Source: Patescibacteria group bacterium
GTDB lineage: Bacteria > Patescibacteriota > Saccharimonadia > Saccharimonadales > JAZKJC01
DNA length: 64,000 nt
NCBI GenBank assembly: GCA_040384565.1
Contig: JAZKJC010000005.1
Coordinates: 12,796 to 76,795 of the forward strand
Reading direction: 5' to 3'
The notes under the pieces are model-generated. The model made no database searches and was not told where the DNA came from. It saw only the letters and a program-made list of their open reading frames with translations. A program made the position numbers and the translations under genes. Below, piece after piece: positions 431-61,654 of this stretch; the first letter of the stretch is position 1, and the number at the start of each line of letters is the position of its first letter.

Positions 431-595
431 TATACCCATGTGAAATTGCTTTTCGGTTTTTAGGGTCGATGCTTTGCGAGTAAGAAAGTTTTGAGATTTT
501 ATCAGCATACCCTTGCGGTACGGTTATCAAATTTCGGAGACTTCTGGCCGGAAAGGGCGAGCCTAAAGGCCGGAAAGTAATTTCTCGTGGGTATA
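431..595 (+). repeat. Family-A long imperfect palindrome, copy A1 (MITE-like or structured-RNA element)
   Basis: Termini are TATACCCATG...CGTGGGTATA. The 26-nt outer arms pair with 22 Watson-Crick pairs, 3 G:U and 1 mismatch (hand count). It shares internal blocks with A2-A4: cttttcggtttttagggt, attttatcagc, tacggttat, aaatttcgg. Confidence 0.8.
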
Positions 596-24275: not shown

Positions 24276-24280
24276 AATCT

Positions 24281-26482: not shown

Positions 26483-26488
26483 GGACTT

Positions 26489-26626
26489 ATGTACTTGGCA
26501 CATTTTGATTCAAAAGCTGCGCTTCGCACCCCGCCTGTCTTTCTGACAGGACGGACAGGTCGCCGTACCTTAGAGTACGGCTCCCTTGTGATGCTCTCTT
26601 TTGAGCCAAACTGCGCTCAAGTACAT
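26489..26626 (+). promoter_or_regulatory. 138-nt structured leader upstream of atpF
   Basis: The closing helix atgtacttg/caagtacat is 9 bp and perfect. It encloses ttttga-n-tcaaaa, conserved hairpin copy 2, and the ccgtac/gtacgg hairpin. It ends 32 nt before the atpF ATG. Confidence 0.45.
26529..26562 (+). repeat. 34-nt conserved hairpin motif, copy 2
   Basis: ccccgcctgtctttctgacaggacggacaggtcg differs by one nucleotide from copy 1. Confidence 0.7.
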
Positions 26627-26658
26627 AGGTCCTAAAGTTAACTGGGGTGGGCGCATAA

Positions 26659-27279: not shown

Positions 27280-27826
27280 ACAAACCCGTTCCGTGCAGCT
27301 TCAATTGCCAATTGGCTTAGTGACACGCATGGATGCTGGCCGGCTAGCAGGTGAGGCCGAAGCAGTTGATAATTTCCTGCGTCAAGCTGCTATCAGGGCT
27401 CCTGGCACCAGCGTGCAGTTACCCAAAACTAGCCGCTTATTTGATGAAATGGTCTCAATAAATAATTTGAATATGCTCCAAGAGCTTGACCGGCAAAGGC
27501 TAACTCAGTTCTTGCAGGCTGTCAGGACTACAGCTCCGATTCTACATATCAGCTTTAACGTGGACCCTTCACCGATTTTTCAGCAGCGTCTAACTACTTG
27601 GATTCGCCAACAAATGCATCCGTTTATACTGTTGCAAATAGGTCTTCATCCAAATATTGGGGCGGGTTGCGTAGTTAGGGCTACCAATAAATATTATGAT
27701 TTTAGCTTACGGCAACGATTTAAGGACCAAAAGATGCTGCTGATTTCAAAATTGACAGGCGCGGATGAGCTGGCTAAAACTCCTGTAGCGGCATCCTTAC
27801 CGGCGACGGAGACTCCAGCCAAATGA
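27269..27826 (+). CDS. atpH: ATP synthase delta (OSCP)-like subunit, divergent
   Basis: The C-terminal pattern NVDPSPIF...[22 protein letters not shown] matches the delta C-terminus. The operon position fits and the N-terminus is atypical. Confidence 0.6.
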
Positions 27827-29346
27827 ATTCGGGCAACCAACACTTTGACAAACTAGTAGCTGCGGGCAACCCTGTTGGCGAAGTTGTAGCCGTAGATAAA
27901 TTCTTGCTGCGTGTAAGTGGGCTACAGCCCTGTAATGTTCATGCGCTAGTAATGTTTGAAGACGGTAGCAAGGGCTTTGTTCATCAAGTCAACGCCGATC
28001 ATGTAGTTGTGCTCCACCTGGGCAGCATAACTCTCCGCACCGGCATAGTCGCGGTCATCCAGCACCAAGAGCTTGTTTGTAAAGTTGGCAAAGATTTTAT
28101 TGGACGGGTTGTATCTGTCATGGGTGAGCCGCTTGACGGCAAAGGCCCTATCGCCGCGGACGCGATTTGGCCGGTATTTAATACGGCTCCACCACTCTAT
28201 ACCCGTAAACTGTTAGATACGCAGCTAGAGAGTGGCGTTACGGCTATAGACGCTTTATTCCCGGTCTTGCGCGGCCAACGTATGGCCCTGCTGGGTGATG
28301 GCAAGTCCGGCAAAAGCACGCTCGTAACCCAGCTGACCATTAACCAAAAAAACACTGATCAAATTGTTGTTTACGTACTAATTGCTAAACGTCGAAGCGA
28401 TATTGACACCTTGCTCACCAGTCTTCAGAAAAACGGAGGCATTGAAAAAGCTATCGTGGTGGTAAGTACCATGTTTGAATCGCTTATTATGAGCTATATT
28501 GCCCCTTACGTAGGTGTAGCCTTGGCGGAGTACTTATGGCAGCAGTTAGCCCAGGACACCATAATTATCTATGATGACCTCACTAGCCATGCCCATGCCT
28601 ACCGCGAAGTCGCCCTGATGTCAGGCGTTAGCCCTGGAAGAGACTCTTATCCGGGCGACATGTTCTACGCACATTCATCGCTTCTGGAAAGAGCAGGACG
28701 ACTGGACAGTAATGGCGCACACCTCACTAGTTTGCCACTGGTAAACGCGGCGGGTGGTGACATTACTGCTTATTTGCCAACTAATATCATGTCTATTACT
28801 GACGGCCAATGGATTTTGGATATGGATATTTTCCGCAATGGTATTCGCCCTGCCATTAATATTGGGCTTAGTGTTACGCGTGTTGGTGGAGTTGGCCACA
28901 ACAAGCGTCAAAAAGCATTGGCGGCTCAAACACTCAAAATGCTTGCTGATTACCGTCAGGCTGAAGAATTCTCCCACTTTGGCTCAGAACTTGCGTTGGA
29001 AGCTAAAAAAGCTTTGCAAACGGGTAAATATATTTTCGAGATGCTTACCCAAAGCCCATCAGATACATATTCACTAATAGCCCAACAGCTAATGCTTGAT
29101 ATTATTTTAAATATGGGTGACGGCGAAACTCTCGATATATCAGCCATGAAGCTCAATATCGTAGAATATGCCGCCAAGGTAACTGGTGATGATAATTACG
29201 AAAATATCAGAACCGAACTAAAATCTAAATCAGTAGTAGAGCTTAAAGGTGCCCCAAGCAAACCAACAACAGAGCTTGCAAAACCTGAAGAGCCACTAAC
29301 TAAATCCGAAGAAAAAGCCAAGAAGAAAGAAGAGGCTAAGAAATGA
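27823..29346 (+). CDS. atpA: ATP synthase F1 alpha subunit, divergent with Lys/Glu-rich C-terminal tail
   Basis: Walker [31 protein letters not shown] and ITDGQ motifs. Confidence 0.85.
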
Positions 29347-30304: not shown

Positions 30305-30361
30305 AAAATAAATACAATTTCACATTTTCCAAACAAGTTTCAGGCCATCGTCTTATCTGGC

Positions 30362-31739
<1,378 letters not shown>

Positions 31740-31745
31740 CGAGAT

Positions 31746-31777
31746 ACGTAGAACGTATAACGTATAACGTAGTACGG
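31746..31777 (+). repeat. heptamer array ACGTAKA x4.5, 5' arm of an outer hairpin enclosing A2
   Basis: acgtaga acgtata acgtata acgtagt acgg. The segment cgtataacgtagtacgg pairs with cctactacgttatacg at 31958-31973. Confidence 0.75.
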
Positions 31778-31794
31778 TTGAAACCAAGCCGTTA

Positions 31795-31957
31795 TATACC
31801 CATGATAAGCCACTTTTCGGTTTTTAGGGTTAAAGTTTTATGAGTCAGAAGTTTTTGAAATTTTATCAGCGTACCGGTAGTACGGTTATTAAATTTCGGG
31901 AAGTTCTGGCTATAAAAGGCGAGTCTAAGAGCCGGAAAGTGGTTTATCATGGGTATA
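31795..31957 (+). repeat. Family-A long imperfect palindrome, copy A2
   Basis: TATACCCATGATAAGCCACTTTTCGG...CCGGAAAGTGGTTTATCATGGGTATA. The outer arms pair with 24 Watson-Crick pairs and 2 G:U (hand count). It lies between atpD and atpC. Confidence 0.85.
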
Positions 31958-31983
31958 CCTACTACGTTATACGTACTACGACC
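31958..31983 (+). repeat. 3' arm of the outer heptamer hairpin flanking A2
   Basis: cctactacgttatacgtactacgacc is complementary to the 31761-31777 array units. Confidence 0.7.
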
Positions 31984-31999
31984 ATTCGGGGCTCATGTT

Positions 32000-32305
32000 A
32001 TGGCTGATCCGGTAAAAGAACCATCATCAGATTCCAGACCATCTACGCCTACTGGTGATGGCAAGCACATGCATGTTAAGGTCTATGCGCCATTTAAGGT
32101 CTATTTTGATGGCCAGGCAGAAAGCATTTCAGCCGAAAACGATACCGGACCATTCGATATATTAGCCGGTCACCATAACTTCATGACGCTGCTGAGCGCC
32201 GGTGAAATAACGGTGCGTAATGAAGGCAAAGAAGAAAAGATAAAGATAAACCATGGCATAATGCACGTAAAAAAAGACGAAGTCGTGGTCTTTCTGGATG
32301 TCTAA
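32000..32305 (+). CDS. atpC: ATP synthase F1 epsilon subunit (beta-sandwich domain only)
   Basis: VKVYAPFKVYFDGQAESISAENDTGPFDILAGHHNFMTLLSAGEITV fits the epsilon N-domain. ATG 32000 is chosen because the longer ORF start lies inside repeat A2. Confidence 0.75.
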   Translation: MADPVKEPSSDSRPSTPTGDGKHMHVKVYAPFKVYFDGQAESISAENDTGPFDILAGHHNFMTLLSAGEITVRNEGKEEKIKINHGIMHVKKDEVVVFLDV

Positions 32306-32311
32306 CCAACG

Positions 32312-33289
32312 CTAGTCAATAACAATGTAGTCGAAGCTAAAGCTTCCTGAAGATAAAGCAGGACCGCTGAAGCATAGCTGAAAGTTGCCGGTTGTACGGT
32401 TAACGTAATAATTTATGTTGGCAGCACCGGCGCCAACCGGAGTGACAACCACATGGGGTACAGAATTAAACGCCTGAGTAAAGTTGGCGGTCACAAAGCA
32501 GCCACTACTCGGGCTACCACCACCAATATTAACCGTAATTGTACCTGCAGTGTCTGTGCCGCTTATACTGACAGTACCGCCTGAGCCGAGACCGTTTCCG
32601 TCAACTTTGCCTGGCGTGGTACCCCCGGCATCGATATGCCGGTTCAACTGCAAATCCCCGGTTAGCTGAAAGCTTTGCACTGTGATTTGTGGTGCGGAAA
32701 TGGGACCGCCAAAGCTACCACCACCGGTAACAGTTAGGCCTTTTTGCGCGGTTAGCTGCCCCTGTATATTAGTGTCTCCCGCAACTGTCAGCTTATTGGC
32801 CTGAACTATATCAAAACCACTTGTGCCGGAAACGGTAATACCCGGCAGGCTCAAAGGTCCTCCGACCTTAATACCGCCAGCTACATCTAGCGAGTCACGG
32901 ATTAGCACTTTGCCGCTAAAAATTGCGTTAGATTCAACTGAAAGTGTCTGCTTAGGATCCCCAACTGACACATCACTATTGTTTAGCTTTTTTAAATCCT
33001 CTGGTGATAAATCTTGGGTTGTAATGGTTGTTGGCGCGGCTTCTTTACGGTTACTCTGAATACTTATCAACGTAAAACCAATCGCCACGACAACGATTAA
33101 TATAAAAAGCAGAAGATAAATATTAAGACGGCCGATTAGTGAACGAACACGTCCGCCTGCGCTTTTAGATTTTTTCTTGGGTTCAGGGATGTTATTATTA
33201 GATGGATTGCTATCGCCACCAACAACAACACTAGTCTCCGGACTTTCCAGAGAGCTCAGCTCACTATTTTCGGCTGTTTGGTTTTCCAT
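32312..33289 (-). CDS. membrane-anchored Gly-rich beta-helix-like repeat protein
   Basis: Cytoplasmic N-tail, one TM helix (IYLLLFILIVVVAIGFTLISI), then repeated G-x-(V/I/L)-x-V/G strands (bactofilin/beta-helix-like periodicity). Confidence 0.6.
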   Translation of the reverse strand: MENQTAENSELSSLESPETSVVVGGDSNPSNNNIPEPKKKSKSAGGRVRSLIGRLNIYLLLFILIVVVAIGFTLISIQSNRKEAAPTTITTQDLSPEDLKKLNNSDVSVGDPKQTLSVESNAIFSGKVLIRDSLDVAGGIKVGGPLSLPGITVSGTSGFDIVQANKLTVAGDTNIQGQLTAQKGLTVTGGGSFGGPISAPQITVQSFQLTGDLQLNRHIDAGGTTPGKVDGNGLGSGGTVSISGTDTAGTITVNIGGGSPSSGCFVTANFTQAFNSVPHVVVTPVGAGAANINYYVNRTTGNFQLCFSGPALSSGSFSFDYIVID

Positions 33290-33470
33290 ATATCAATCTT
33301 ATGCTTATGCCTACTAATTAATCTTATAATACTATGATAGGCATTAAAAACATAAACACATTGTAAATATTTGCTTGTTCTGCCATAATTGGCAATGATA
33401 AAGCACATTTAATTTTGCAACCAGCTGCTAAAAAATCATCATGATAGATGAAAACAAAATGATTTCTAAA

Positions 33471-33639
33471 TTAATAGACTCCTTCCGGAATAAAAACCCC
33501 GATGAAAAAACGAGGATTTTTGTTCCAAAGTTTTCAATAATTCGTAAAGCGTATCTGGATACGGTTTACGAATTTTGGGAAGTTTGGGGTAAAAAGGACG
33601 TTTTTTGGCGGGGGAGTTATTCCGGAAGGAGTCTAATAT
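33471..33639 (+). repeat. Family-B long imperfect palindrome, copy B1
   Basis: The perfect 19-bp termini are tagactccttccggaataa / ttattccggaaggagtcta. The interior pairs with several U:G wobbles on the plus strand. Mirror-image ORFs on both strands are an artefact of the palindrome. Confidence 0.8.
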
Positions 33640-33695
33640 CTTGTAGTGATTATCCCCATCTGGGTAAGGCCACACGGGATTTTTAAAGAGTATAT

Positions 33696-34376
33696 ATGCC
33701 CCGCTATTACCGTGAAAGCACATATCACCGGCAAATCCGGTTTATACGAATAATCCGGCGTCTTGTTTTGGTAATAGTGACTATACTATTCGGAATAGGC
33801 GCTTTTATTTCTTACGATACATGGCGTGCATCTAAGCAGGCTAGTCGGCCCAGTGCAACTACCGCTCCATCTAAATCTACTTTTGTTTCGAGCTTGGAAA
33901 TATATCGAACGCAATATTTTCAGTTTCAAGCTAGCAAAACCTGGCGAGCAATTGCTAACGAATCGACGGCGACAAAGTTTATGTACCGTAAGTTCAACTC
34001 TAATCTGGTAGAAGCGCAGCTTGCTATATACGTCAATGAACCAGCAGATAAGAACATTGATGCCAATAGAGTCTTGCCAGTTACTTTCAGTCCTGCCAAT
34101 GATAAGCTCAATGCCTTATTTGTATCCGATCATTGTGGCAAGGATGCTAAAGAAAAAGGCTATAAAATGGTCAAACTTCAAGATGTGACTTTCCGTTGCC
34201 TAACAGACTCGGCTGATTACAGTCTGCTCATTGGTAAAGAGGGCGGCACTACTAAGCTGGAAATGGTTCGTGCTGACGGCACTCTAATAACTTATGTTAT
34301 TCATTTTCGTGATCTCAGAGCAATTGCGGATGCGCAGGATATTGAGGATATAGTTAACAGCTTCCAAGTACGCTGA
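33696..34376 (+). CDS. hypothetical membrane-anchored extracytoplasmic protein
   Basis: 226 aa with a basic N-terminus and one TM helix (LVLVIVTILFGIGAFISY). Confidence 0.55.
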   Translation: MPRYYRESTYHRQIRFIRIIRRLVLVIVTILFGIGAFISYDTWRASKQASRPSATTAPSKSTFVSSLEIYRTQYFQFQASKTWRAIANESTATKFMYRKFNSNLVEAQLAIYVNEPADKNIDANRVLPVTFSPANDKLNALFVSDHCGKDAKEKGYKMVKLQDVTFRCLTDSADYSLLIGKEGGTTKLEMVRADGTLITYVIHFRDLRAIADAQDIEDIVNSFQVR

Positions 34377-34390
34377 GCATTAAATGCTTA

Positions 34391-34399
34391 TGATATAAT
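34391..34399 (+). promoter_or_regulatory. extended -10 box TGaTATAAT, 11 nt before ATG 34411
   Basis: tgatataat is a perfect consensus. Confidence 0.45.
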
Positions 34400-34410
34400 A
34401 TCCTCATAGT

Positions 34411-35181
34411 ATGTTAGTAAGACAAATAAGAAAAATAATAATAGGTTTTGTGCTTGCGGTGTCCATGACTCAGCCCGTTTTTGCTCAATCTTCATCTCCA
34501 AGTTATAAAGTTGAAGAGACTTATTTTGGCAGCGGTGGCGCAGTAGACCTATCCTCTCCTGGCTACCAAGGACAAGCTGGTCTAGGCAGTTTAGGCGTTG
34601 GATCATCCTCAAGCGCTAACTATGATGCTGAAGCTGGATTCTACACTCCGAACCAGGTTTTTCTAGAATTTGTCGTGACTGGAGCTACAGTAGAACTCGG
34701 CGTACTATCCCCGTCCGCGCCATCATCAGGCGCTGCGCAGGCGGGTACCTGCAACTGCTCATTTTATGTCAGAAGCTATCTGTCATCTGCTTATATTGTT
34801 ACCACAATTAGCAATCCGCCAACCAGTGAAAGTGGCCATTCTTTTGCTGCCAAGGCAACGACTGGAGCGCCATCAACTGACTCGACAGTGGAGGAGTTTG
34901 GTATTAACGTAGTTGCTAACACCTCGCCAGTTCTAGGAGCAAATCCGTTCAACGATCCAAGTGGTATGTTTGCAGATGGCACAGCAGCCGCTGGGTACAA
35001 TGTAGCTAACCAATTCAAATATGGCATAGGAGATAATATCGCACGCTCCCCTGCAACCGTTGGTAATCAAGGAACCGGTAAGACTAACTTTACAATTTCC
35101 TACATTATAAAACCCAAAAATACAACCCCAGCAGGTACCTACCGTATGGATCATGTCCTGGTTGCGATACCGACATATTAA
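34411..35181 (+). CDS. secreted fimbrial-subunit-like protein (paralogue 1 of 3)
   Basis: Signal peptide ending VFA-QS. It shares with 37965 and 39290 the internal ...N-Q-(L/V)...(F/V)(C/V)VG...(L/F)G block and a C-terminal G-x-Y...aromatic end (AGTYRMDHVLVAIPTY). Confidence 0.6.
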   Translation: MLVRQIRKIIIGFVLAVSMTQPVFAQSSSPSYKVEETYFGSGGAVDLSSPGYQGQAGLGSLGVGSSSSANYDAEAGFYTPNQVFLEFVVTGATVELGVLSPSAPSSGAAQAGTCNCSFYVRSYLSSAYIVTTISNPPTSESGHSFAAKATTGAPSTDSTVEEFGINVVANTSPVLGANPFNDPSGMFADGTAAAGYNVANQFKYGIGDNIARSPATVGNQGTGKTNFTISYIIKPKNTTPAGTYRMDHVLVAIPTY

Positions 35182-35236
35182 AAAAATTCACGTAAAGATA
35201 TATTTTTGCTATGCTTAAAGCAAAATAAGGTATTTA

Positions 35237-37861
35237 ATGAAAAAGTTAGCAGTGATGATTCGTAGATACCATGCATTTTTATTGATTCTTACCTTGGGTT
35301 TTACAATTCTCCCTTTGACCAAATCAGAAGCTCTTGTTGGCTCAGGCCCCCTTTGGTTAGTAAGTGTAAACAATTCAGGTGTTCAGGGGACTAACCCCAA
35401 TTACGCACCTACAAGTAATATGCCGACAATTAGTGCCGATGGCCGTAATGTTGCATTTTATTCAACCGCACGACTCGTGCCAGAAGACACCAACACATTT
35501 GCTGATGTATATGTTCGTGATGTACAAGCAGGAATAACCAAAAGAGTTAGCATAGCCAGTAATGGAGACCAGGCCGATGGACCAAGTGAAACAGCCGCCA
35601 TTAGCGCAAACGGTCGCTTTGTTGTCCTTAGATCTGATGCGACCAATCTTGTAACAGGTGATACCAACAATCACACAGATTTTTTTGTACATGATTTACA
35701 GACAGCGATTACGACTATTGAGAGTATAAGCACAAGCAGTACCCAAGCAAATAACTCAAGTACTCTAGCTTCTATTAGCGCTGATGGCCGTTACATAGTT
35801 TTTGATTCTTTGGCAAGCAATTTGGTGCCCAATGATACAAATGGACGATCTGATATATTCTTACGCGATCGTCAAAATGGAGTTACTAGTAGAGAAAGTA
35901 TCAATCTATCAGGTAATCAAGCTAATGAAACGAGCTTTGAACCAGAAATTAGCGCTGATGGCCGTTACATAGTTTTTAGTTCGTTTGCTTCTAATTTATT
36001 GGTTGGAAACCAAAATCCTAATGATTCGAATGATGCATACGATATTTTCGTACGCGACCGGCAGACAGGTACGAACAGAAGAGTCAGCGTTGGCAGCAAT
36101 GGTCTACAAGCGAATGGGGGTAGTCAACGTCCACAAATCAACGATTCTGGTACACGGATAGTTTTTGATTCAGACGCAAGAAATCTAGTTCCAGAGAACA
36201 TTCCTCTTCCTTTTGGTTCACAGTATGCCCAGAATGTTTATATGCATGATTTAACAACAAACACCACAAGCCTTTTAAGTAAAAGTATTAATGGTAGTAC
36301 AGGGGGTAACTTTCATAGCAACCAGCCTGCTATTAGTGGGGATGGCGAATTTGTGGTTTTCACATCATCTGCAAATGACTTAGTCTCTGGAGATTCTGGA
36401 ATTATTGGGGAAGGGAGTGGCGATGTTTTTGTTAGAGAGATCGTTACAGACACTACCAAAAGGATAAGTCTTTCAAATAATGGCGAGGAAGGAAACGATA
36501 ACAGCTATTATCCAAGTATAAGTTTTGATGGAAATTATACTGTTTTTGCTTCACAAGCATCAAATTTTGTAACCCCAGATATTAATGGTTACGATATATT
36601 TTTGTACCAGAATTCTATACCTGATACACAACCCCCTATTGTAATGGGTTCCCCAGATCGAGAAGCTAATTCACACAACTGGTATAACGCGGATGTGACG
36701 ATAGATTGGACGGCTATTGACCCTGCGCCAAGCTCCGCCACTCCGACAGACCCACCCAATACAACTGCAAGCACTGAAGGAGCCAATGTTACTTATACTA
36801 GCGGGCAAAGCTGTGATCCTGATAATAACTGTGCTGCGGGCTCGCTAGCTCTATCAATAGACAAAACCGCGCCAACCATTACGGCCACCATAACGTCAGC
36901 GCCAAATAGCAGTGGCTGGAATAAAGACGAAGTGACCGTCACGTTTGCTTGTACCGATTTATTATCTGGGATAGATTTTTGTCCAGCTCCCTTTACGGTT
37001 TCTAACGACACAGCAAGTCAAACAGTCTCCGGTTCTGCAATAGACAAAGCAGGCAATACCGCAAACGCGTCCGTGGTTGTGAAGATAGATAAAACAGTGC
37101 CAACTATAACTGCCTTTGTCGTACCAGCCTCTAATTTAAATGGTTGGAATAACAATGATGTTACGGTGACATTTACGTGTAATGACGTGTTATCTGGGAT
37201 AGATTCGTGTTCCAGCCCCATTACAGTGAGCGGTGAAGCCAACAACCAGGCAATTACAGGAACGGCAGTTGATAACGCCGGAAATATAACAACGATAACA
37301 GTAACACTCAATATTGATAAGACCTTACCGACCATAACAACTGCTGTGACGCCTGCTCCAAATGCTAAAGGCTGGAATAACTCTAATGTTACGATAACAT
37401 TAACATGTTCAGACACTCTATCGGGCGTTGATACATGTAGTGCTCCTATTACTCTAACAAACGAAAGAGATGGACAAGTTGTGTCAGGAACTGCAGTTGA
37501 TAACGCCGGAAACAGCATAAATGTTACCCAAACTATCCGCATTGATAAAACTATCCCAACTGTTGGTGCTATAAGCTTTAATACACCAGGTAATCAGGGA
37601 GTAAAAACCTTGAATCAGACAATTACGGTGTCAGCACTTGCAAATGATGTTCTATCAGGTATAGATGGCGGAGAATACTTTGTAGATGTTGACCCAGGCG
37701 CAGGTAACGGTACGCCTATGACTATATCTGGACTGAATATTACAGGTACAATAGGTACAAACCTTACACCAGGTTCGCATCAGATATATGTTCGTTCTAA
37801 AGATGCAGCTGGCAACTGGAGTATTCTGTCTTCTCGGCGGTTAGTTGTCCTTCCATTCTAA
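35237..37861 (+). CDS. secreted PD40/TolB-like beta-propeller protein with tandem Ig-like domains (putative adhesin)
   Basis: Signal peptide followed by at least 7 repeats of the I-S-(A/G)-D-G-R-(Y/F)-(I/V)-(V/A)-F type, then four ~76-aa IDKT.PTIT...GWN...VT(V/I)TF.C.D.LSG(I/V)D.C units. Confidence 0.7.
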   Translation: MKKLAVMIRRYHAFLLILTLGFTILPLTKSEALVGSGPLWLVSVNNSGVQGTNPNYAPTSNMPTISADGRNVAFYSTARLVPEDTNTFADVYVRDVQAGITKRVSIASNGDQADGPSETAAISANGRFVVLRSDATNLVTGDTNNHTDFFVHDLQTAITTIESISTSSTQANNSSTLASISADGRYIVFDSLASNLVPNDTNGRSDIFLRDRQNGVTSRESINLSGNQANETSFEPEISADGRYIVFSSFASNLLVGNQNPNDSNDAYDIFVRDRQTGTNRRVSVGSNGLQANGGSQRPQINDSGTRIVFDSDARNLVPENIPLPFGSQYAQNVYMHDLTTNTTSLLSKSINGSTGGNFHSNQPAISGDGEFVVFTSSANDLVSGDSGIIGEGSGDVFVREIVTDTTKRISLSNNGEEGNDNSYYPSISFDGNYTVFASQASNFVTPDINGYDIFLYQNSIPDTQPPIVMGSPDREANSHNWYNADVTIDWTAIDPAPSSATPTDPPNTTASTEGANVTYTSGQSCDPDNNCAAGSLALSIDKTAPTITATITSAPNSSGWNKDEVTVTFACTDLLSGIDFCPAPFTVSNDTASQTVSGSAIDKAGNTANASVVVKIDKTVPTITAFVVPASNLNGWNNNDVTVTFTCNDVLSGIDSCSSPITVSGEANNQAITGTAVDNAGNITTITVTLNIDKTLPTITTAVTPAPNAKGWNNSNVTITLTCSDTLSGVDTCSAPITLTNERDGQVVSGTAVDNAGNSINVTQTIRIDKTIPTVGAISFNTPGNQGVKTLNQTITVSALANDVLSGIDGGEYFVDVDPGAGNGTPMTISGLNITGTIGTNLTPGSHQIYVRSKDAAGNWSILSSRRLVVLPF
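36857..37540 (+). repeat. three tandem 228-bp coding repeats (Ig-like domain units), with a fourth degenerate unit following
   Basis: Units begin at 36857, 37085, 37313 and 37541, each with the IDKT codons, giving an exact 228-nt period. Confidence 0.85.
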
Positions 37862-37964
37862 ACCTGTGGATAACCGCTTGCTTAGGTAAAATGCTTGTGT
37901 TACATTAGCTCCGTAACTTTCAACATTACAAATAAAAAGTATCAAAACAAAAGGAGATCATAAG

Positions 37965-39236
37965 ATGCAAAGTTTCATAAATATAAAAGATAGAACGGCT
38001 TCGTTGCTTATTGCGACAGTATTAGTTCTATTTAGTGTGCTATTGGCTGTTTTGCCATTTGCAAAAGTATCAGCATACTCAACCCTCAATGAGCGAAAGA
38101 TCCAACTCGGCAGCTCAAAAATAAGTCAAACAGACGTTACATATGACGTAAGTTTCAAACCAACCACAACTGGTAACATCCGCACAATCATTATTGATTT
38201 TTGTGATAGCCCATTGATTGGTACTGTTTGTAACGCGCCAGCTGGCTTTAGCTCAGTCGAGTCAACTTTGATTGTCTCAGACCTCACGGGTCTAGCTGGA
38301 ACTTGGTTAGTTGATCAAACCGAAACAACTACCAATACCATTTTCATTAAAAACGCTACAGGAGGCAGTATAGCTGCAGGTTCAGAAGCTAGCTTCGACC
38401 TTGGTTCAACAGGTGGTACCGATGGTGTTACAAACCCATCTGCAACTGGAACCTTCTATGCTCGCATTCTAACCTATACTACAGATACTGCGGGTGACGC
38501 CTATGATTCTTCGAGTACAGGTGCCAACAACCCTCCTGCCGCTACAGTTGATGCCGGAGGTGTAGCCCTTAGTACTGCTAACCAATTGACCATCAATGCT
38601 ATCGTGCAAGAACAACTACAGTTTTGTGTCGGTACTATAAATGGTGCAGCCCCTGCTGACTGCACAGGCTTAACTGGCAGTACTGTTAACCTTGGTGTTG
38701 TGGACTCAACGGTCAGTAGTATTTCCCCAGTTGCTGCTGCTAGCGGTGGCAACAACTTAAACGGTGCCGCTATGGTGCGAACCAATGCAGCTAATGGCGT
38801 AGTTATTGAATACTTCGCTGAAGTAGCATCAGGCACTAACCATACACGAGCACTACGTGTACCTGGCGCTACTTGTAACGCTGGTGTCGTAGACACTGAC
38901 CAATGTTTTAACTCACCAGATACTCAAATTTCGTTTGCAACCGCAGGCTTCGAAGGCTTCGGGGTTACGTCTACCCTAGATACTAGTAGTGGTAGTACTA
39001 CAAACGTCGTGAGAGACGCGAACTATGACGGTGATGGTACCGCAGCAGTTGGCTTTGCCTGGAGAGAATCAGGTGCATTCGCTACCCTGGCTTCTTCTAC
39101 GGGTGGTGCACAACCTGAAAACCGAGTGGTCGAAGACGAGATGCTTGTCCTAAGATTTGCAGCTCGTGCTGACGCGACAACTCCAACTGGTTCCTACAGT
39201 GTAGTAAGCACATACGTAGCAACCTCATCGTTCTAG
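37965..39236 (+). CDS. secreted fimbrial-subunit-like protein (paralogue 2, probable major subunit)
   Basis: Strong AAGGAG RBS and a signal peptide. The N-terminal block L.ER.I.LGSS...FCDSPL...C.AP.GF is paralogous to 39290. The C-terminus is PTGSYSVVSTYVATSSF. Confidence 0.65.
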   Translation: MQSFINIKDRTASLLIATVLVLFSVLLAVLPFAKVSAYSTLNERKIQLGSSKISQTDVTYDVSFKPTTTGNIRTIIIDFCDSPLIGTVCNAPAGFSSVESTLIVSDLTGLAGTWLVDQTETTTNTIFIKNATGGSIAAGSEASFDLGSTGGTDGVTNPSATGTFYARILTYTTDTAGDAYDSSSTGANNPPAATVDAGGVALSTANQLTINAIVQEQLQFCVGTINGAAPADCTGLTGSTVNLGVVDSTVSSISPVAAASGGNNLNGAAMVRTNAANGVVIEYFAEVASGTNHTRALRVPGATCNAGVVDTDQCFNSPDTQISFATAGFEGFGVTSTLDTSSGSTTNVVRDANYDGDGTAAVGFAWRESGAFATLASSTGGAQPENRVVEDEMLVLRFAARADATTPTGSYSVVSTYVATSSF

Positions 39237-39289
39237 AACTATCAGTTCCAGTTACAATTTAGTCAATAATACCTTAAACTAGAAGACAA

Positions 39290-40330
39290 ATGATAAGGTA
39301 CAAGACATCTCAGTTTAGCTGGTTCATAGCGGTACTAATCCTCGGATTAGTACCGCTAGTTCGCGTATTAGAGGCAGATGCAGCAACTTTACAAAATCGG
39401 TCAATTAGGGCTGAAAGTTCCCAGGTCAATGCCAACACTATACATGTGTTTAATTATAATATTCCAAGCATATCGGTGGTTGGTTCAACGGTCTTTGAGT
39501 ACTGCGCGAATGATCCATTGTTACAAACTCCATGTACGCCTCCGTTAGGCCTAGATGTTTCAGTATCAAACCTTGACTCAGAAGCAGGCGATGTAGGTTA
39601 TAGCATCCACGCCTCAACTACATCTAACCGGCTAATACTAACAAGACTGCCCGTTTTAAGTATTCCAGGGGCGGCTCAGTATGTTTTCAGCAATATTATT
39701 AATCCATCTTCTATTGGAACAGTCTATGTACGTATATCTCTGCACGCAAGTGTTGACGGAACTGGTCCTTATGGCGATGGCGGGGGTGTTGTTTTTAGTA
39801 TTGCCAACCAGTTATCTACACAAGCTTTCGTACCTCCATTTTTAATATTTTGTGTTGGTGTTACTGTGGCCAACGATTGCTCGAGTTCTACTGGCAGCAA
39901 TATAGATTTTGGTGAGTTATCCAGAACTAGCCCGAAGACGGCGACTTCACAATTTGCAGGTGCTACTAATGACGCGACAGGATTCTTTACGAACATAGTC
40001 GCGAATACAATGACCTCAGGCAATCAAGTTATTAATCCACTAATAGTTCCAACTAATAATGCACCAGGTACTAGTCAGTTCGGACTAAATATGCGCGCAA
40101 ATAGCAATCCAAGCGTTGGACAAGATCCAGTAGGTATAGGTAGCTCGACAATTCAGCCAGATTATGCTATTCCAAATCAATTTATTCTGAAAGATGGCGT
40201 AGTAACCAGCTCGCCGTTACCAACAGACTTTAACGCGTTTACAGTTAGTTATTTGGTCAACGTAGCAGCTAATCAAGCCCCAGGTGTCTACAACACAACC
40301 TTAACTTATGTGGCTACCGCTGCTTTCTAA
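39290..40330 (+). CDS. secreted fimbrial-subunit-like protein (paralogue 3)
   Basis: Signal peptide. Blocks LQNRSIRAESS...YCANDPL...C.PPLGL and FSIANQLSTQAFVPPFLIFCVGV...IDFGEL. The C-terminus is PGVYNTTLTYVATAAF. Confidence 0.65.
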   Translation: MIRYKTSQFSWFIAVLILGLVPLVRVLEADAATLQNRSIRAESSQVNANTIHVFNYNIPSISVVGSTVFEYCANDPLLQTPCTPPLGLDVSVSNLDSEAGDVGYSIHASTTSNRLILTRLPVLSIPGAAQYVFSNIINPSSIGTVYVRISLHASVDGTGPYGDGGGVVFSIANQLSTQAFVPPFLIFCVGVTVANDCSSSTGSNIDFGELSRTSPKTATSQFAGATNDATGFFTNIVANTMTSGNQVINPLIVPTNNAPGTSQFGLNMRANSNPSVGQDPVGIGSSTIQPDYAIPNQFILKDGVVTSSPLPTDFNAFTVSYLVNVAANQAPGVYNTTLTYVATAAF

Positions 40331-40416
40331 ACTTCCTATAACATACACGCATTTACAAAAGACACGCCAATGCTTATACTTAGGCCAGAATGTATAAAAA
40401 TTAGCGGAGGTTTCTA

Positions 40417-41397
40417 ATGATACGTCGTAAATTATCAATTTTGTTATGTCTAGCAATTCTTGGCGTTGGTTTGTTGTGGGTGCCAGTAAGGGCCCAACAG
40501 GAAACAGGTGGCAGTGGTTTGCAAATATCACCTACAAAAACTGATATAAGCATTGTTGCTGGCGATCAGCGTGATTTCACTATCGCCGTTAAAAACGTTA
40601 CTCAAGGTGACTTGACGGTAAAGACTTTTATAAATGATTTTGAATCAGATAACATTACCGGCAATCCAAGATTGCTGGCTGACACAACAAAAAGAACGGC
40701 TTATTCACTGGCTGAAATAATAAAAGGGCTCAACGACTTTGAATTAAAAGCCCAAGAGAGCAAAGAAATAAAACTTACTGCTATCGTCCCGGCTAATGCT
40801 TCACCTGGAGCATATTTTAGTGCTGTGCGTTTTACGGCTATTCCTAAAAATCAGGCTTCTGAAGCAACGCAAGATGGCGGACAAGTTGCTCTGACGGCAA
40901 GTCTCGCTCATCTGGTTCTTATTGAAATTCCCGGTGAAATAAATGAACAGATTCAGCTAGAAAGCCTTAAATTCCAAAGTAGTGGCAAGGGTGGATCATT
41001 TTTCTTAAGTAGTCCCGATAAAGCAAACCTAGCTATTAAGAACCTTGGAAACGGTTTCTCGCGTCCATTCGGTAAGGTAACTATCAGTAGATTTGGCAAA
41101 GAGGTGTTTGCGTATGATGTTAACAACACCGATCCAAAAGCTATTGTTCTGCCCAAATCCAGCCGTACGCTCATTAATGACGTAAAGAATATAAAATCTC
41201 CCGGTAAATATACGGCGGTTGCATCAGTTGCTTACGGTAATGGAGCAGAAGTTATTAACCAGGAAGTTTCATTCTGGTATGTACCAGCCTGGTTGATAGC
41301 TTTGATACTGGCAATAATTCTAGCAGTGGTAATTGGTTCGTATCTGATGTATCGCAAGCGTTTTGGCAAGCGTCAGGCTAAAAAGAATCGTCGGTAA
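40417..41397 (+). CDS. two-domain surface protein with C-terminal TM anchor (CscA/DUF916-DUF3324-like, chaperone-like strand pattern)
   Basis: GGAGG RBS and a signal peptide. Blocks LQISPTKTDISIVAGDQRDFTIAVKNVT...TFINDF, PGAYFSAVRF and SPGKYTAVASV. The C-terminal TM helix is followed by YRKRFGKRQAKKNRR. Confidence 0.6.
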   Translation: MIRRKLSILLCLAILGVGLLWVPVRAQQETGGSGLQISPTKTDISIVAGDQRDFTIAVKNVTQGDLTVKTFINDFESDNITGNPRLLADTTKRTAYSLAEIIKGLNDFELKAQESKEIKLTAIVPANASPGAYFSAVRFTAIPKNQASEATQDGGQVALTASLAHLVLIEIPGEINEQIQLESLKFQSSGKGGSFFLSSPDKANLAIKNLGNGFSRPFGKVTISRFGKEVFAYDVNNTDPKAIVLPKSSRTLINDVKNIKSPGKYTAVASVAYGNGAEVINQEVSFWYVPAWLIALILAIILAVVIGSYLMYRKRFGKRQAKKNRR

Positions 41398-41404
41398 GCG
41401 TAGT

Positions 41405-41567
41405 CATACCCATGATAAACCACTTTCCGGCTCTTAGACTCGCCTTTTATAGCCAGAACTTCCCGAAATTTAATAACCGTACTACCGGTACGCTGATAAA
41501 ATTTCAAAAACTTCTGACTCATACAACATCAACCCTAAAAACCGAAAAGCAATTTATCATGGGTATA
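41405..41567 (-). repeat. Family-A long imperfect palindrome, copy A3 (inverted relative to A2)
   Basis: The reverse complement of 41406-41523 is identical to 31839-31956 (118 nt, hand alignment). The remaining arm differs but still pairs through five G:U wobbles on the minus strand. Confidence 0.85.
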
Positions 41568-41598: not shown

Positions 41599-42510
41599 AT
41601 GGGGATAGTAGGAACACCCATGAAACTAAAAAATCTAACTTTGGTAGTAATTACCCCATTAATTACAGTTTTGCTTGCCATCATTTTTGTAAGTATTAGT
41701 TCGAGTGTCTACGCGGCCCAAGATTCGGGATCAATTGGTATAGAAGGCCGTATTTCGGCGCCTCCACCTACTCAAGGCGCTACAATTAGTTTGCCAAGAG
41801 ACGGACAGGCTTTTACCACTGTGCCAATTGACGTTAGCGGTATATGCCCGGTAGGGCTGCTCGTGAAGCTGTTCAAAAATAACATTTTTTCAGGTTCACA
41901 GATGTGTACAAATGGTAGCTTTTCTATAAAGGTTGATCTATTTACTGGTACCAACGAGCTTGTGGCACGCGTCTATGATGCCCTAGATCAACCAGGGCCG
42001 GACTCTAACAAAGTTACAGTGAGTTTTAATGATAATAAACAGGGCGCCGGTTCCCGCGTTTCGCTAACCAGTAACTTTGCCAAAAGAGGTGCTAATCCCG
42101 GGCAGACTCTAACTTGGCCAATAATTTTATCCGGTGGCCAAGGCCCATACGCAATTAGTGTTGATTGGGGGGATGGCAAAGCGCCCGATCTTAAGAGTGT
42201 TGAAAATCCCGGTACGTTTAGTATTGAGCACATATACGATAGCCCGGGCGTATACAACATTATCATCAAGGCAACCGACAAGAACGGGGTAAGCGCTTTC
42301 TTGCAGCTTGTAGGTGTAGCCAACGGAGCCTTAAGCCAGGAAAATGGCACTAAAACTGACGGTGATAATGCCGGAGGGACAAGAACCCGTATAATTTGGC
42401 AGCCCGCGGCAATTTCTATCCCGTTCATCATATCGACGTTTTGGCTGGGCAAGCGCTACGAGCTTAAGATGCTGAAGAGGAAAATAGAACGCGGCGACAG
42501 ACCGTTCTAA
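41599..42510 (+). CDS. PKD-domain surface protein with C-terminal TM anchor
   Basis: Signal anchor and a PKD-like ISVDWGDGKAPD...HIYDSPGVYNIIIKATDKNG. The C-terminal TM helix is followed by a basic tail. An alternative start is ATG 41620. Confidence 0.6.
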   Translation: MGIVGTPMKLKNLTLVVITPLITVLLAIIFVSISSSVYAAQDSGSIGIEGRISAPPPTQGATISLPRDGQAFTTVPIDVSGICPVGLLVKLFKNNIFSGSQMCTNGSFSIKVDLFTGTNELVARVYDALDQPGPDSNKVTVSFNDNKQGAGSRVSLTSNFAKRGANPGQTLTWPIILSGGQGPYAISVDWGDGKAPDLKSVENPGTFSIEHIYDSPGVYNIIIKATDKNGVSAFLQLVGVANGALSQENGTKTDGDNAGGTRTRIIWQPAAISIPFIISTFWLGKRYELKMLKRKIERGDRPF

Positions 42511-42512: not shown

Positions 42513-42626
42513 CTGTTTACGGTTTACTATTTCCCCTTCACCATGCATTTACCGTTTTCTGTTTTCCATGGCAAACGGCTCAAGTGTAAACGCATAGAAA
42601 ACAGTAAATGGTAAACGGCAAAACAG
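42513..42626 (+). promoter_or_regulatory. GTAAAC-box module U2 upstream of mnmA
   Basis: Three GTTTAC-type boxes are followed by four GTAAAC-type boxes. The blocks ttcaccatg, tttacc, gtaaacgca and agtaaatggtaaacgg occur in the same order as U1. The outer arms ctgtttacggtttact / agtaaatggtaaacgg..aaaacag are complementary. Confidence 0.45.
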
Positions 42627-42649: not shown

Positions 42650-43831
42650 ATGAAAACAGTGTATGTTGGGATGAGTGGTGGGGTGGATAGCTCTGTGACG
42701 GCGGCTTTGCTTAAAGAGCAGGGGTATACAGTTGTGGGCGTGTATATGAAAAACTGGAGCCAGGACTTGCCGGGCATGCCATGTACATGGAAAGAGGATT
42801 ATCAGGATGCTAAGCGGGTGGCCGTGCAGCTTGGTATTGACTTTAAGGTGTATGATTTTGAAAAGCAGTACCGGCATAAGGTTGTGAACTATATGCTTAA
42901 CGAGTACAAAGCTGGTCGTACCCCAAACCCTGACATAATGTGCAACCAGGAGATCAAATTCAAACTTTTTTTAGAAACCGCTCTCGAGGATGGCGCGGAC
43001 TTGATTGCCACCGGGCACTACGCCCGGATAGGACGAGCAATGAGCCATGAGCAACGAGCAAAGAACGAAAAGGGGGCTGATTCGTTGCTCACTGCTCACT
43101 GCTCACTGCTCACGGCAGCCAACAAAGAGAAAGACCAGACTTATTTTTTGTATAGGGTAACTAAAGAAGCGCTGTCAAAAAGTCTAATGCCTATAGGAGA
43201 ATTTGAGACTAAAAATGAAGTCAGACTGTTGGCTAAAAAAATGGGCCTGGCTACGGCGGATAAAAAAGACAGTCAGGGGATTTGCTTTGTCGGAAAGGTC
43301 GGTATCAAAGATTTCTTGCTGCATGAGCTGGGGCCTCAACCAGCTGGTGCCATTCTGAATCAGAACGGCCAAGAAATTGGCGAACACGACGGAGCGATAT
43401 TTTATACTATTGGTCAGCGACACGGTTTGGATGTTGGGGGCGGTTTGCCGTATTACGTGGTTGGAAAAGATATGTCAAAGAATCAAGTATTCGTCACGAC
43501 TGACTTGCAGGATGAAAAGCTCTGGCAGGACACCTTGAATCTTACGGATGTACACTGGATCAGTGGTGAGCCTTTAGCTCTGAGCAATGAGCAAAGAGCA
43601 ATCCATTCGACAAGCTCAGGACACGTGAGCAATGAGGGACTACAGGTTCGGACTCGTTATAGGGCTCCATTGGTGAGAGCTACGCTACAGGTGGTGACTT
43701 CTAGCGCCAAAAATAGCGAAACCACGCTACAGGTAGTGTTGTCTGATCAAGTCCGTGCCGTAACCCCGGGTCAGTCAGCAGTTATATATGCTGGCGAGCA
43801 GGTACTTGGCGGCGGCATAGTCTTATATTAA
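42650..43831 (+). CDS. mnmA: tRNA-specific 2-thiouridylase
   Basis: PP-loop GMSGGVDSS, plus TGHYAR, KDQTYFL, DSQGICF and TPGQSAV motifs. It contains two heptamer-repeat insertions (see repeats). Confidence 0.9.
   Translation: MKTVYVGMSGGVDSSVTAALLKEQGYTVVGVYMKNWSQDLPGMPCTWKEDYQDAKRVAVQLGIDFKVYDFEKQYRHKVVNYMLNEYKAGRTPNPDIMCNQEIKFKLFLETALEDGADLIATGHYARIGRAMSHEQRAKNEKGADSLLTAHCSLLTAANKEKDQTYFLYRVTKEALSKSLMPIGEFETKNEVRLLAKKMGLATADKKDSQGICFVGKVGIKDFLLHELGPQPAGAILNQNGQEIGEHDGAIFYTIGQRHGLDVGGGLPYYVVGKDMSKNQVFVTTDLQDEKLWQDTLNLTDVHWISGEPLALSNEQRAIHSTSSGHVSNEGLQVRTRYRAPLVRATLQVVTSSAKNSETTLQVVLSDQVRAVTPGQSAVIYAGEQVLGGGIVLY
43035..43113 (+). repeat. Family-C heptamer palindrome, copy C1, in-frame inside mnmA
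   Basis: Arm gagcaat gagccat gagcaac gagcaaa gaacgaa, loop aagggggctga, arm ttcgtt gctcact gctcact gctcact gctcac. It is translated as RAMSHEQRAKNEKGADSLLTAHCSLLTA. Confidence 0.75.
43582..43636 (+). repeat. Family-C heptamer array, copy C2 (direct units only), in-frame inside mnmA
   Basis: gagcaat gagcaaa gagcaat at 43582-43602, and gagcaatgag again at 43627-43636. It is translated as SNEQRAI...VSNEG. Confidence 0.6.
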
Positions 43832-52821: not shown

Positions 52822-52824
52822 TAA

Positions 52825-52985
52825 TAGACTTCTTCTAAAACCCCACCTTACCAATACCAATTTTCAGGGCAATCCGTTAGTTTTCTGTCTCAAATAGTAG
52901 CCACGGCTACAATTTGAGCCATAAAACCACCAGCTTACTCCTGAAAATAGCTATTGCCAACAGATGGGGTTTTAGAAGAAGTCTA
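52825..52985. repeat. Family-B long imperfect palindrome, copy B2
   Basis: The termini tagacttcttctaaaacccca / tggggttttagaagaagtcta form a 21-bp perfect pairing. The apex is ctcaaatagtagcc-acg-ggctacaatttgag. It starts 4 nt after the mltG stop. Confidence 0.8.
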
Positions 52986-52998
52986 ATATTTTTTACAG

Positions 52999-54516: not shown

Positions 54517-55788
54517 ATGTTTGTTGATGTTGCGGTAGTTAAAGTTAAGGCAGGTGATGGCGGCAATGGGGTTGTCAGTTTTCGGCATGAGAAATTTATT
54601 GACCGTGGTGGGCCGGATGGTGGGGACGGTGGTAAAGGTGGCGACGTCATACTTATGGCCAGCCGCAATCAAAACACCCTTGCCAACTTTAGATTCCAGA
54701 GGGAGCTAAAGGCAACCGAAGGCCAAGCAGGTTCCAAAAGGCGCAAGCATGGCCGTAATGGTATTGATTTAGTTGTACCAGTTCCACTCGGAACGAGTGT
54801 CTTGGGCGTGGACGGCAATGTACTGGCAGATTTAACAATAGAAGACCAGCCGTTGATACTTGCCAAAGGCGGTAAGGGCGGTTTTGGCAATGCTCACTTT
54901 GTTAGCAGCACCCGTCAAGCTCCACGGGTAGCAGAAAAAGGCGAACAAGGTGATGAATTAACTGTAACACTAGAACTTAAGATGATCGCGGATGTTGGCC
55001 TGATTGGTCTGCCAAACGCCGGCAAGTCCACCTTGCTCAGCGTTGTCAGCAATGCCCACCCGGAAATAGCTGATTACCCATTTACCACTCTGACTCCAAA
55101 TCTGGGAGTTGTGGATATTGACAAAAAATCTTCGCTGCTGATAGCCGATATTCCGGGTCTTATAGAGGGTGCCAGTAGTGGCAAAGGTCTAGGGGATGAA
55201 TTTTTGCGTCATGTTGAACGTACTCGGGTACTTTTGCATTTGATTGATATATACCAAGATAATATCGCCACTGCCTACAAGACCATACAGGGCGAACTAG
55301 CTGCCTATAAAACAGATTTAGCAGGCAGGCCTCAAATAGTTGTTCTAACCAAAGCTGACGGTCTAGACGAGGAAATTATCGCAGATCGATTAGCGGAACT
55401 AAAAAAGCTAGTACCAAAAAACACACCACTTTTTGCGATATCCGCTCATAGTAAAGCTGGCTTAAAAGAACTTTTGTTCGCCCTTCAAAAAATTGTTGCA
55501 ACAGATCAGAAACAAGTTGCCAAGAAAACTAAAGAAAAAATCCCAGTCTTGACCCTCGGAACCGATGACGCCTGGAAAGTTAAAAAGATAGGCCCTGGGT
55601 TTACGATTACAGGTAAAAAAATTGAACGCTTCGCGGCTAGAACTGACTTTAGCAGCTTTCATGGTCAGCAGCGCCTGCGAGATATTATGCGCAAAATGGG
55701 CATCATGCACGAACTACGCCGTCAGCAAATTGAGCCAGGTTCTAAAATCACAATAGGTAGTCCCTCTCTGGGCTCTATTGAATATTAG
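54517..55788 (+). CDS. obg: GTPase Obg
   Basis: Gly-rich Obg fold (GGDGGKGG). G1 GLPNAGKST, G3 DIPG and G4 TKAD motifs. Confidence 0.9.
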   Translation: MFVDVAVVKVKAGDGGNGVVSFRHEKFIDRGGPDGGDGGKGGDVILMASRNQNTLANFRFQRELKATEGQAGSKRRKHGRNGIDLVVPVPLGTSVLGVDGNVLADLTIEDQPLILAKGGKGGFGNAHFVSSTRQAPRVAEKGEQGDELTVTLELKMIADVGLIGLPNAGKSTLLSVVSNAHPEIADYPFTTLTPNLGVVDIDKKSSLLIADIPGLIEGASSGKGLGDEFLRHVERTRVLLHLIDIYQDNIATAYKTIQGELAAYKTDLAGRPQIVVLTKADGLDEEIIADRLAELKKLVPKNTPLFAISAHSKAGLKELLFALQKIVATDQKQVAKKTKEKIPVLTLGTDDAWKVKKIGPGFTITGKKIERFAARTDFSSFHGQQRLRDIMRKMGIMHELRRQQIEPGSKITIGSPSLGSIEY

Positions 55789-55946
55789 TATACCTTAGCA
55801 GAAATTGGTTTTCGGGGTTGATGATTTCCTGGTCAGAAGTTTCTGAAATTTTATCAGCATATCCTTTGGTATGGTTATCAAATTTCGGGAAGTTCTGGCT
55901 GGAAAGGACAAGTCAAAAAGTCGGAAAGTAGTTTCTGTTGGGTATA
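55789..55946 (+). repeat. Family-A long imperfect palindrome, copy A4
   Basis: It starts at the base after the obg TAG. The termini are tataccttagcagaaattgg... / ...tagtttctgttgggtata. It shares the internal blocks attttatcagcata and ggttatcaaatttcgggaagttctgg. Confidence 0.8.
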
Positions 55947-55955
55947 TGCTAGACT
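55947..55955 (+). promoter_or_regulatory. extended -10 box TGcTAGACT, 6 nt before the sbcB ATG
   Basis: tgctagact is followed by ggctgc and then ATG 55962. It lies immediately after the right end of A4. Confidence 0.45.
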
Positions 55956-61474: not shown

Positions 61475-61483
61475 TGGTACAAT
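61475..61483 (+). promoter_or_regulatory. extended -10 box TGgTACAAT directing transcription into A5 and uvrA
   Basis: tggtacaat ends 1 nt before the left end of A5. The predicted start site falls in the A5 terminal repeat. Confidence 0.45.
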
Positions 61484-61484
61484 C

Positions 61485-61645
61485 CATTACCATGATAAAT
61501 TGCTTTTCGGGTTTTCAGGCTTGATGATTTTTGTCCCAGATCTTCCAGAATTTGCGGAGCATATCTGGATATGTGTAGCAAATTATGGAAGATCTGGGAC
61601 AAAAAGGGCAAGTCTGGAAAGCGAAAAGTAGTTTATTATGGGGAT
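61485..61645 (+). repeat. Family-A long imperfect palindrome, copy A5 (divergent interior)
   Basis: The termini cattaccatgataaattgcttttcg / cgaaaagtagtttattatggggat are conserved. The interior tttttgtcccagatcttccagaatttgc / gcaaattatggaagatctgggacaaaaa is unrelated to A1-A4 yet fully self-complementary. Confidence 0.75.
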
Positions 61646-61654
61646 CGCGTCAAC

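Follow-up and report, generated by a model that had tools for sequence, protein, structure and literature searches.

Dispersed hairpin elements, probably MITE-like, form the inverted repeat around atpC and a surface-protein block in a Saccharibacteria genome

[quoted passage not shown] The Correia elements of Neisseria, also called NEMIS (Neisseria miniature insertion sequences), measure ~100–160 bp, have terminal inverted repeats within 5'-TA...TA-3' ends, form stem-loops that are RNase III substrates and may sit between co-transcribed genes (PMC2229807, PMC2649163). Enterobacterial repetitive intergenic consensus sequences (ERIC), or intergenic repeat units (IRU), are intergenic and co-transcribed with orientation-dependent effects on mRNA stability (PMC2229807), and Rickettsia palindromic elements (RPE) can lie inside genes (PMC2229807). 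Here we describe a ~165-nt hairpin element, family A, in a 64-kb stretch of DNA (the window; contig JAZKJC010000005.1) from a Patescibacteria group bacterium of the Saccharimonadales, in which two inverted copies, A2 and A3, bracket atpC, the gene for the F1 epsilon subunit of ATP synthase, and a block of surface-protein genes. These arms are probably two copies of a dispersed, non-coding, MITE-like hairpin element of the Correia/ERIC type, a new family in a reduced genome of the Candidate Phyla Radiation (CPR; Saccharibacteria). In a literature search, neither MITEs nor hairpin repeats turned up for Saccharibacteria or Patescibacteria.

At least seven copies of family A occupy unrelated intergenic sites in the window (Table 1), namely the five recognized in the original prediction and two diverged members, A6 and A7, that it overlooked. 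A covariance model made from seven copies, R1, finds the five known copies as well as A6 and A7, and a 20-mer of the element has four matches in the window against 0.02 expected by chance. The copies are 158–168 nt long, and each forms an imperfect palindrome over almost its full length, ending in 5'-TATACCC...GGGTATA-3' except that A6 and A7 have ends of their own (Table 1); the terminal arms (33 nt) show 88% complementarity, so that the element carries the terminal inverted repeats of a bacterial MITE, and pairing runs on through the full length. As RNA, the copies have predicted minimum free energies of -67 to -95 kcal/mol (z ~ -12). Covariation supports the hairpin: paired cells make up 93.3%, falling to 36–55% once the 3' partners are slid by 1–3 columns, and 12 pairs have both sides changed, a count that 0 of 500 shuffles reach.

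No family-A copy was seen within any coding region. Five of the seven window copies are sense to the next gene and lie close upstream of it, and the other two (A3 and A7) are antisense to neighbouring genes. A protein-coding role was considered and rejected: one frame of the 3' arm stays open in the majority of copies, yet a 2-nt indel puts copies out of frame with one another, and a search for homologues of the element's translated frames among 5.8 billion proteins found none (an antisense-frame alignment likewise found nothing). The 81-aa open reading frame (ORF) over A6 matches only itself in the protein database. At the gathering threshold Rfam gave 0 matches over the whole window, and at an E-value threshold the element gave only chance-level matches to miRNA hairpins (E ~1). 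Scans for promoter and terminator consensus sequences near A2, A6 and A3 gave no useful information.

The two strands of the element are far from equivalent. On the sense strand the nine copies compared hold 87 G-U pairs against 2 A-C juxtapositions, and an A-C juxtaposition on the sense strand is a G-U pair on the opposite strand. Polymorphic pair columns alternate between Watson-Crick and G-U in 38 cases and between Watson-Crick and A-C in 9 (p = 2.5e-5), canonical cells amount to 93% on the sense strand against 79% on the antisense strand, and the conserved 1x1 mismatches of the hairpin are G-G and G-A. The energy gap between strands is 29–41 kcal/mol in family A (19–20 in A6 and A7), with 5–14 G-U pairs on one strand versus 0–2 on the other. 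For A2 the predicted RNA fold is -87.3 kcal/mol (z = -12.7) on the + strand versus -55.1 on the - strand, for A3 -81 (sense, - strand) versus -40, for A6 -88 versus -69 and for A7 -87.8 (- strand) versus -69 (+ strand). The antisense copies A3 and A7 show the polarity too, so it comes with the element lineage or source copy and not from local transcription. The asymmetry remains under DNA energy parameters; hence the energies point to a single-stranded form of fixed polarity and leave RNA versus DNA undecided. From this excess of G-U over A-C, retained through divergence, we infer selection on one single-stranded form, either a transcript or a single-stranded DNA (ssDNA) intermediate.

Compared with the described systems, family A resembles Correia/NEMIS in size, terminal inverted repeats, TA termini, its intergenic and dispersed distribution and a long predicted stem-loop. 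It differs in that the sequences are dissimilar and the palindrome is the whole element, as opposed to the 24–26-bp terminal inverted repeats plus core of Correia; family A also combines a strong G-U >> A-C polarity with a reduced CPR host, and no integration host factor (IHF) site, promoter or target-site duplication has been shown for it. ERIC is likewise an imperfect palindrome (127 bp) with TATAC...GTATA-type ends, as seen in the ERIC copy L058, although its sequence is unrelated and the ERIC copy that we tested is only slightly strand-asymmetric where family A is strongly so. The RPEs are palindromic 100–150-bp repeats in a reduced genome as well, again of unrelated sequence, and unlike them family A has no copy in a coding region. 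The REP/RAYT system (repetitive extragenic palindromes of 20–40 nt with a Y1 transposase) was rejected as a match, given the ~165-nt element and no Y1_Tnp-type protein among the scanned window proteins.

Within the family, the two arms stand apart. Direct string comparison confirmed the predicted 118-nt inverted identity at 118/118 positions, and a repeat finder extends the ungapped pair to 168 nt with 95% complementarity and the arms 9437 nt apart. Over the element A2 and A3 are 95% identical, while all other family-A pairs are 57–85% identical, so it is correct, as had been claimed, that these two differ from A1, A4 and A5. The identical tract spans the apex and 3' arm, and in A2 and A3 alike its end points toward the block, 6 nt from the element terminus. 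The differences cluster outside it: 7 of the 8 aligned differences are confined to the initial 45 nt of the 5' arm, the remaining one sits at the 3' terminus, and an identical run this long has P = 1.7e-4 under random placement. In the 5' arm A3 retains the family consensus (ATTGC, GATG) and A2 has derived states (GCCAC, AAAG); the GCCAC of A2 is a Watson-Crick match to the common 3'-arm GTGGT, with which the ATTGC of A3 pairs only via wobbles. Such clustering is the pattern expected of a conversion or recombination tract, and together with the closeness of the pair it supports the earlier suggestion of recent duplication or gene conversion. On the simplest reading of the sequences, A2 and A3 would have a recent common origin, and conversion or recombination would have its boundary around position 45: a recent copy event would have produced the two copies, and later gene conversion or recombination the 118-nt identical tract beside a diverged 5' arm. 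Alternatively, the mosaic may reflect recent transposition followed by compensatory change in A2.

Comparison with relatives dates the elements relative to the block. Loci with AtpD orthologues 90–94% identical were available from five other assemblies (L008–L011 and L057). In all five, atpC begins 2–35 nt past the atpD stop, with no element. The two long loci, L010 and L011, have the order atpC, a reverse-strand ~320-aa gene, several secreted proteins, a WxLIP_PGBD-like protein, a PKD-domain protein and mnmA, in the orientation of the window and without the repeats; in L008 and L009 the block is partly syntenic, also without repeats. At the A3 site the orthologous spacer between the WxLIP and PKD genes is 90 nt in L010 and 30 nt in L011 and is element-free, and at the A6 site four relatives have an empty 105–135 nt. 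Hence there is insertion polymorphism at orthologous sites (A2 empty in 5 relatives, A6 in 4 and A3 in 2), and R1 found no family-A copy over the relatives' 76 kb, only weak matches to a second hairpin family. L056, nearest of the relatives (AtpD 95%), provides no usable empty site because its sequence ends 14 nt past atpD. As relatives hold the same block without repeats, the block is ancestral in place and orientation, and A2, A3 and A6 are later insertions. With this, the element has the traits by which bacterial MITEs are recognized, being non-coding and within the ~50–500 bp of small elements of the Correia/ERIC/RUP type, with terminal inverted repeats, seven dispersed copies in 64 kb, insertion polymorphism and a predicted stable, long stem-loop transcript.

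Outside the window, family A is found in few places, among them two other contigs of Saccharibacteria type. Across 185,579 species genomes the diagnostic 20-mer has 1 genuine copy, which belongs to a metagenome-assembled genome (MAG) from uncultured Saccharibacteria (L003, CAZWFS010000001.1), and it has 2 in Joint Genome Institute (JGI) metagenomes, L007 and the truncated L006; L002, L004 and L005 are chance 20-mer matches. Among viral contigs the 20-mer had 0 matches, and a looser 18-mer had 42 loci, none confirmed by the covariance model. The foreign copies are 79–85% identical to the window copies, which are 73–80% identical among themselves (exceptions: A2/A3, 95%; A5, 57–63%). L006, with 1.3 kb between its element halves, was considered as an autonomous parent and rejected: it is a family-A copy truncated by an insertion of the insertion sequence (IS) family IS3. 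That IS3-family element, unrelated to family A (L006 107–1450; orfA of 96 aa and rve-type orfB of 344 aa, reverse strand) lies in the copy, whose 3' half is gone.

Like IS- or MITE-flanked composites and repeat-mediated inversions, the locus has two inverted repeat copies around a gene block, and homologous recombination between them would invert it. The original prediction therefore offered two further readings. One is that the repeats mark the borders of an acquired cassette, a composite transposon whose two element copies carried the block between them to this position. The block is indeed flanked by a pair of copies of one mobile-type repeat, and MITE pairs flanking mobilized DNA are known, for example in Acinetobacter integrons (PMC10969869). 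The tetranucleotide composition of the block also strays furthest from that of the whole window (distance ~12, mean 8.7), and its GC skew is ~0 versus +0.05 in both flanks. The proposed check of composition thus did find a difference, but not one that clearly signals acquisition, since the repeat-free orthologous blocks show the same drop (skew -0.03 in L010 and -0.02 in L011 versus +0.04 to +0.15 in flanks); hence the anomaly probably belongs to the S/T/G/A-rich surface genes. Moreover, atpC lies inside the interval yet is part of the atp operon, and the composite has no flanking direct repeats. The gene-order comparison with relatives, named in the original prediction as the test that could refute a cassette, returned the same block in the same place and orientation without either repeat. 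Synteny shows that the block was not mobilized, and the cassette is refuted; we give it hardly any credence. The other reading, that recombination at the pair inverts a 9.4-kb segment, whose programmed or frequent switching changes surface-locus expression (phase variation), we regard as very unlikely. A perfect 118-bp inverted repeat, its identical ends facing the block, directly flanks surface-protein genes, which are a typical target of phase variation, and short-read assemblies leave either orientation open. Independent Logan contigs (k = 31) of SRR26324625 stop in both arms exactly 30 nt into the identical tract: L001 matches window 31928–41435 with 0 mismatches, and L001, L054 and L055, all 100% identical to the window, end in A1 (442), A2 (31928), A3 (41435) and A4 (55870). 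As contigs break inside the repeats, short-read graphs are unable to orient the block, and only spanning reads can. However, all relatives covering the region have one orientation and lack the repeats, no second orientation was observed, the repeats are ordinary members of a dispersed family and not dedicated sites, and the block genes are co-oriented with the flanks. Pfam scans of 49 window proteins (of ~55 genes; the six predicted genes at 9054–9398, 10782–12113, 25478–26482, 26659–27279, 27269–27826 and 27823–29346 lay outside the scan) found no invertase, recombinase, transposase or reverse transcriptase. Inversion would also take atpC out of the atp operon to the far end on the opposite strand, and selection would act against it because it breaks the operon. 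For RecA-type homologous recombination 118 bp of perfect inverted repeat are enough, so a RecA-dependent inversion of the 9.4-kb block could occur as an accident, not as a programmed switch.

Several observations weigh against the MITE-like reading. No target-site duplication was demonstrated, at most a possible TA within the TATA ends: TA stands at both ends of six of the seven A-type copies (L003, L007 and five from the window), there is no longer direct repeat, and the spacers of the relatives have diverged too far for an empty site to be read base by base. Neither an autonomous partner nor a transposase appeared in the scanned window proteins or in ~8 kb of adjoining sequence added by extending the contig with Logan contigs (~72 kb of genome in all), and the extension held no new copy. 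Family A is rare in public data (1 species genome, 2 JGI metagenome copies, 0 viral). Lastly, ordinary cut-and-paste transposition of double-stranded DNA (dsDNA) does not predict strong strand polarity, and one E. coli ERIC copy, used as a control, has a far smaller asymmetry (-70.7 versus -62.0 kcal/mol, 3 versus 1 G-U pairs). The elements might instead be primarily functional single-stranded hairpins, either host RNA processing or stability modules or movers via a folded ssDNA or RNA intermediate, and not conventional dsDNA MITEs. The polarity kept through divergence speaks for this, as do purine-purine 1x1 mismatches and an apex CGTAC...GTACG common to three subfamilies and to the relatives' family C, the prevalence of copies sense to and close upstream of the next gene (5/7), and an orthologous family-C copy upstream of the atp operon that is kept in the window and L008 with compensated pairs. 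Yet the two antisense copies have the same polarity, which is thus inherited from the source copy and not locally imposed; orthologous sites in relatives are without family-A copies, there is no Rfam family match, and no HUH/Y1 transposase or reverse transcriptase is among the scanned window proteins. We consider this reading unlikely. A bolder version, to which we assign a slightly smaller chance still, would unite A, A6/A7 and the relatives' family C, with their shared apex, in a lineage-specific hairpin superfamily that acts or is selected as a single strand with one fixed polarity, being either an ssDNA- or RNA-mobile element or a domesticated RNA module of Saccharibacteria operons. If true, it would be a kind of mobile structured element new to CPR bacteria.

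If the MITE-like element A2 is co-transcribed, it would place an RNA hairpin of ~70 bp between atpD and atpC, with ~100 paired positions when the outer repeat is included. The entire atpD–atpC spacer (31740–31999, 260 nt) is a nested hairpin that includes A2 and an outer inverted repeat, the motif of which was found at this one site only within the window; the fold of 31740–31990 reaches -119 kcal/mol (z = -13.9). The true start of atpC is 32000, not 31949. The predicted hairpin is likely to be cleaved by RNase III or to obstruct translational coupling, and A2 thus probably uncouples the expression of atpC from that of atpD. By analogy with Correia elements (RNase III) and ERIC (RNase E), it would probably do so by processing or destabilizing the transcript. 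Upstream in the same operon, the atpG–atpD spacer (30305–30431, 127 nt) holds AATGATAAATGA-like short repeats, whereas atpG and atpD overlap by 4 nt in L008–L011 and L057; the spacer is a further lineage-specific insertion inside the atp operon.

The gene content of the enclosed block had been predicted as atpC plus eight surface-protein genes. Seven secreted or surface genes stand beside atpC, and the eighth (33441–33686, 81 aa) is a spurious ORF through A6. The second block gene (33696–34376, 226 aa) has 36% identity to a 230-aa protein of L011 and no match to the 245–249-aa proteins of L008–L010, and the 874-aa PD40 protein has no counterpart of equal size in L008–L011. Judging by these sequences, genes within the syntenic block are replaced or diverge fast, as is typical of surface proteins.

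The second hairpin family, C (~125–150 nt, apex GCCGTAC...GTACGGC), was found via weak R1 matches with filters off. Its copy upstream of the atp operon occupies an orthologous site in the window and in L008 (4807–4932), and compensated pairs set the two apart. This family-C insertion is old and those of family A are young, a gradation that fits repeated hairpin gains in the clade.

Other repeats lie near the block. Compared with its L010 orthologue, mnmA (42650–43831) carries 21 extra aa in frame, and this insertion falls on a DNA palindrome at 43035–43104 (GAGCAATGAGCCATGAGCAACGA / TCGTTGCTCACTGCTCACTGCTC). This palindrome belongs to a second palindromic family, not to family A, and lies in-frame in a gene like the Rickettsia RPEs. 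A similar GAGCAA.../...GCTCAC palindrome fills the atpG–atpD spacer of L056, and mnmA has two further in-frame insertions of 17 and 11 aa. An inverted pair rich in GTAAAC/GTTTAC (24190–24280 / 42515–42620, ~100 nt, ~76% identical) has one copy upstream of an aminotransferase gene and one upstream of mnmA, thereby bracketing the atp operon and the surface block. Elsewhere in the window, a transfer-messenger RNA (tmRNA) gene at 12169–12552 (+) scores 43 bits against Rfam RF00023 (gathering score 47; E = 2.9e-15); it was missed by ARAGORN and by the gathering-threshold scan, and the tRNA/tmRNA scan returned nothing.

Table 1 Coordinates of family-A copies, related repeats and neighbouring genes (window positions unless a relative is named).
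Feature	Position	Strand	Evidence and remarks
A1, between PIN-domain gene and pyruvate kinase	431..595	+	R1 163 bits
A2, family-A hairpin element in atpD–atpC spacer	31795..31962	+	R1 174 bits; site empty in 5 relatives
118-nt identical tract in A2	31839..31956	+	exact string match
A6, diverged, ends TAATAGACT...AGTCTAATA, divergent spacer of (-) 325-aa and 226-aa genes	33473..33637	+	R1 88 bits
A3, family-A hairpin element, inverted, between WxLIP_PGBD-like and PKD-domain genes	41400..41567	-	R1 173 bits
Partner of 118-nt identical tract, in A3	41406..41523	-	exact string match
A7, diverged, A6-like ends TAATAGACT...AGTCTAATA, antisense to flanking yceG and LysM-CHAP genes	52823..52987	-	R1 49.8 bits, E = 3e-10 (filters off)
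A4, between obg and sbcB	55787..55948 (55783-55946 in the repeat comparison)	+	R1 137 bits
A5, diverged, 7-9 nt 5' of uvrA start (61655)	61483..61648	+	R1 128 bits
Outer inverted repeat around A2 (31747-31771 / 31956-31980)	31747..31980	+	inverted-repeat pairs I7 and I9
Family C members	26482-26633, ~54345-54470; L008 2612-2733, 4807-4932; L009 3970-4092		
atpD (F1 beta subunit)	30432..31739	+	Pfam ATP-synt_ab E = 6.5e-62; 100% identical to NCBI MAG protein of 'Patescibacteria group bacterium'
atpC (F1 epsilon subunit)	32000..32305	+	Pfam ATP-synt_DE_N E = 1.2e-17; start fits relatives' ATGGCAGA
Surface/secreted block, 7 genes: 325 aa (-), then 226, 256, 874 (PD40), 423, 346 and 326 aa (WxLIP_PGBD-like)	32312..41397		signal peptides, S/T/G/A-rich
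PKD-domain membrane protein, first gene past A3	41599..42510	+	directly after WxLIP-like gene in relatives

The reduced genomes of CPR bacteria such as Saccharibacteria are commonly portrayed as containing little mobile DNA. In this 64-kb housekeeping region, long palindromic insertions make up ~2% of the sequence, and one of them splits the normally translationally coupled atpD–atpC junction. Short-read assemblies break exactly at the borders of the repeats, so in MAGs very few spanning reads decide how such blocks are oriented. That two inverted stretches match so strikingly is what a repeat family ordinarily produces, and the readings as cassette or switch are not worth carrying forward. 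Strand polarity is the sole unexpected trait of this MITE-like family, and its strength offers a handle on whether such elements are selected as RNA.

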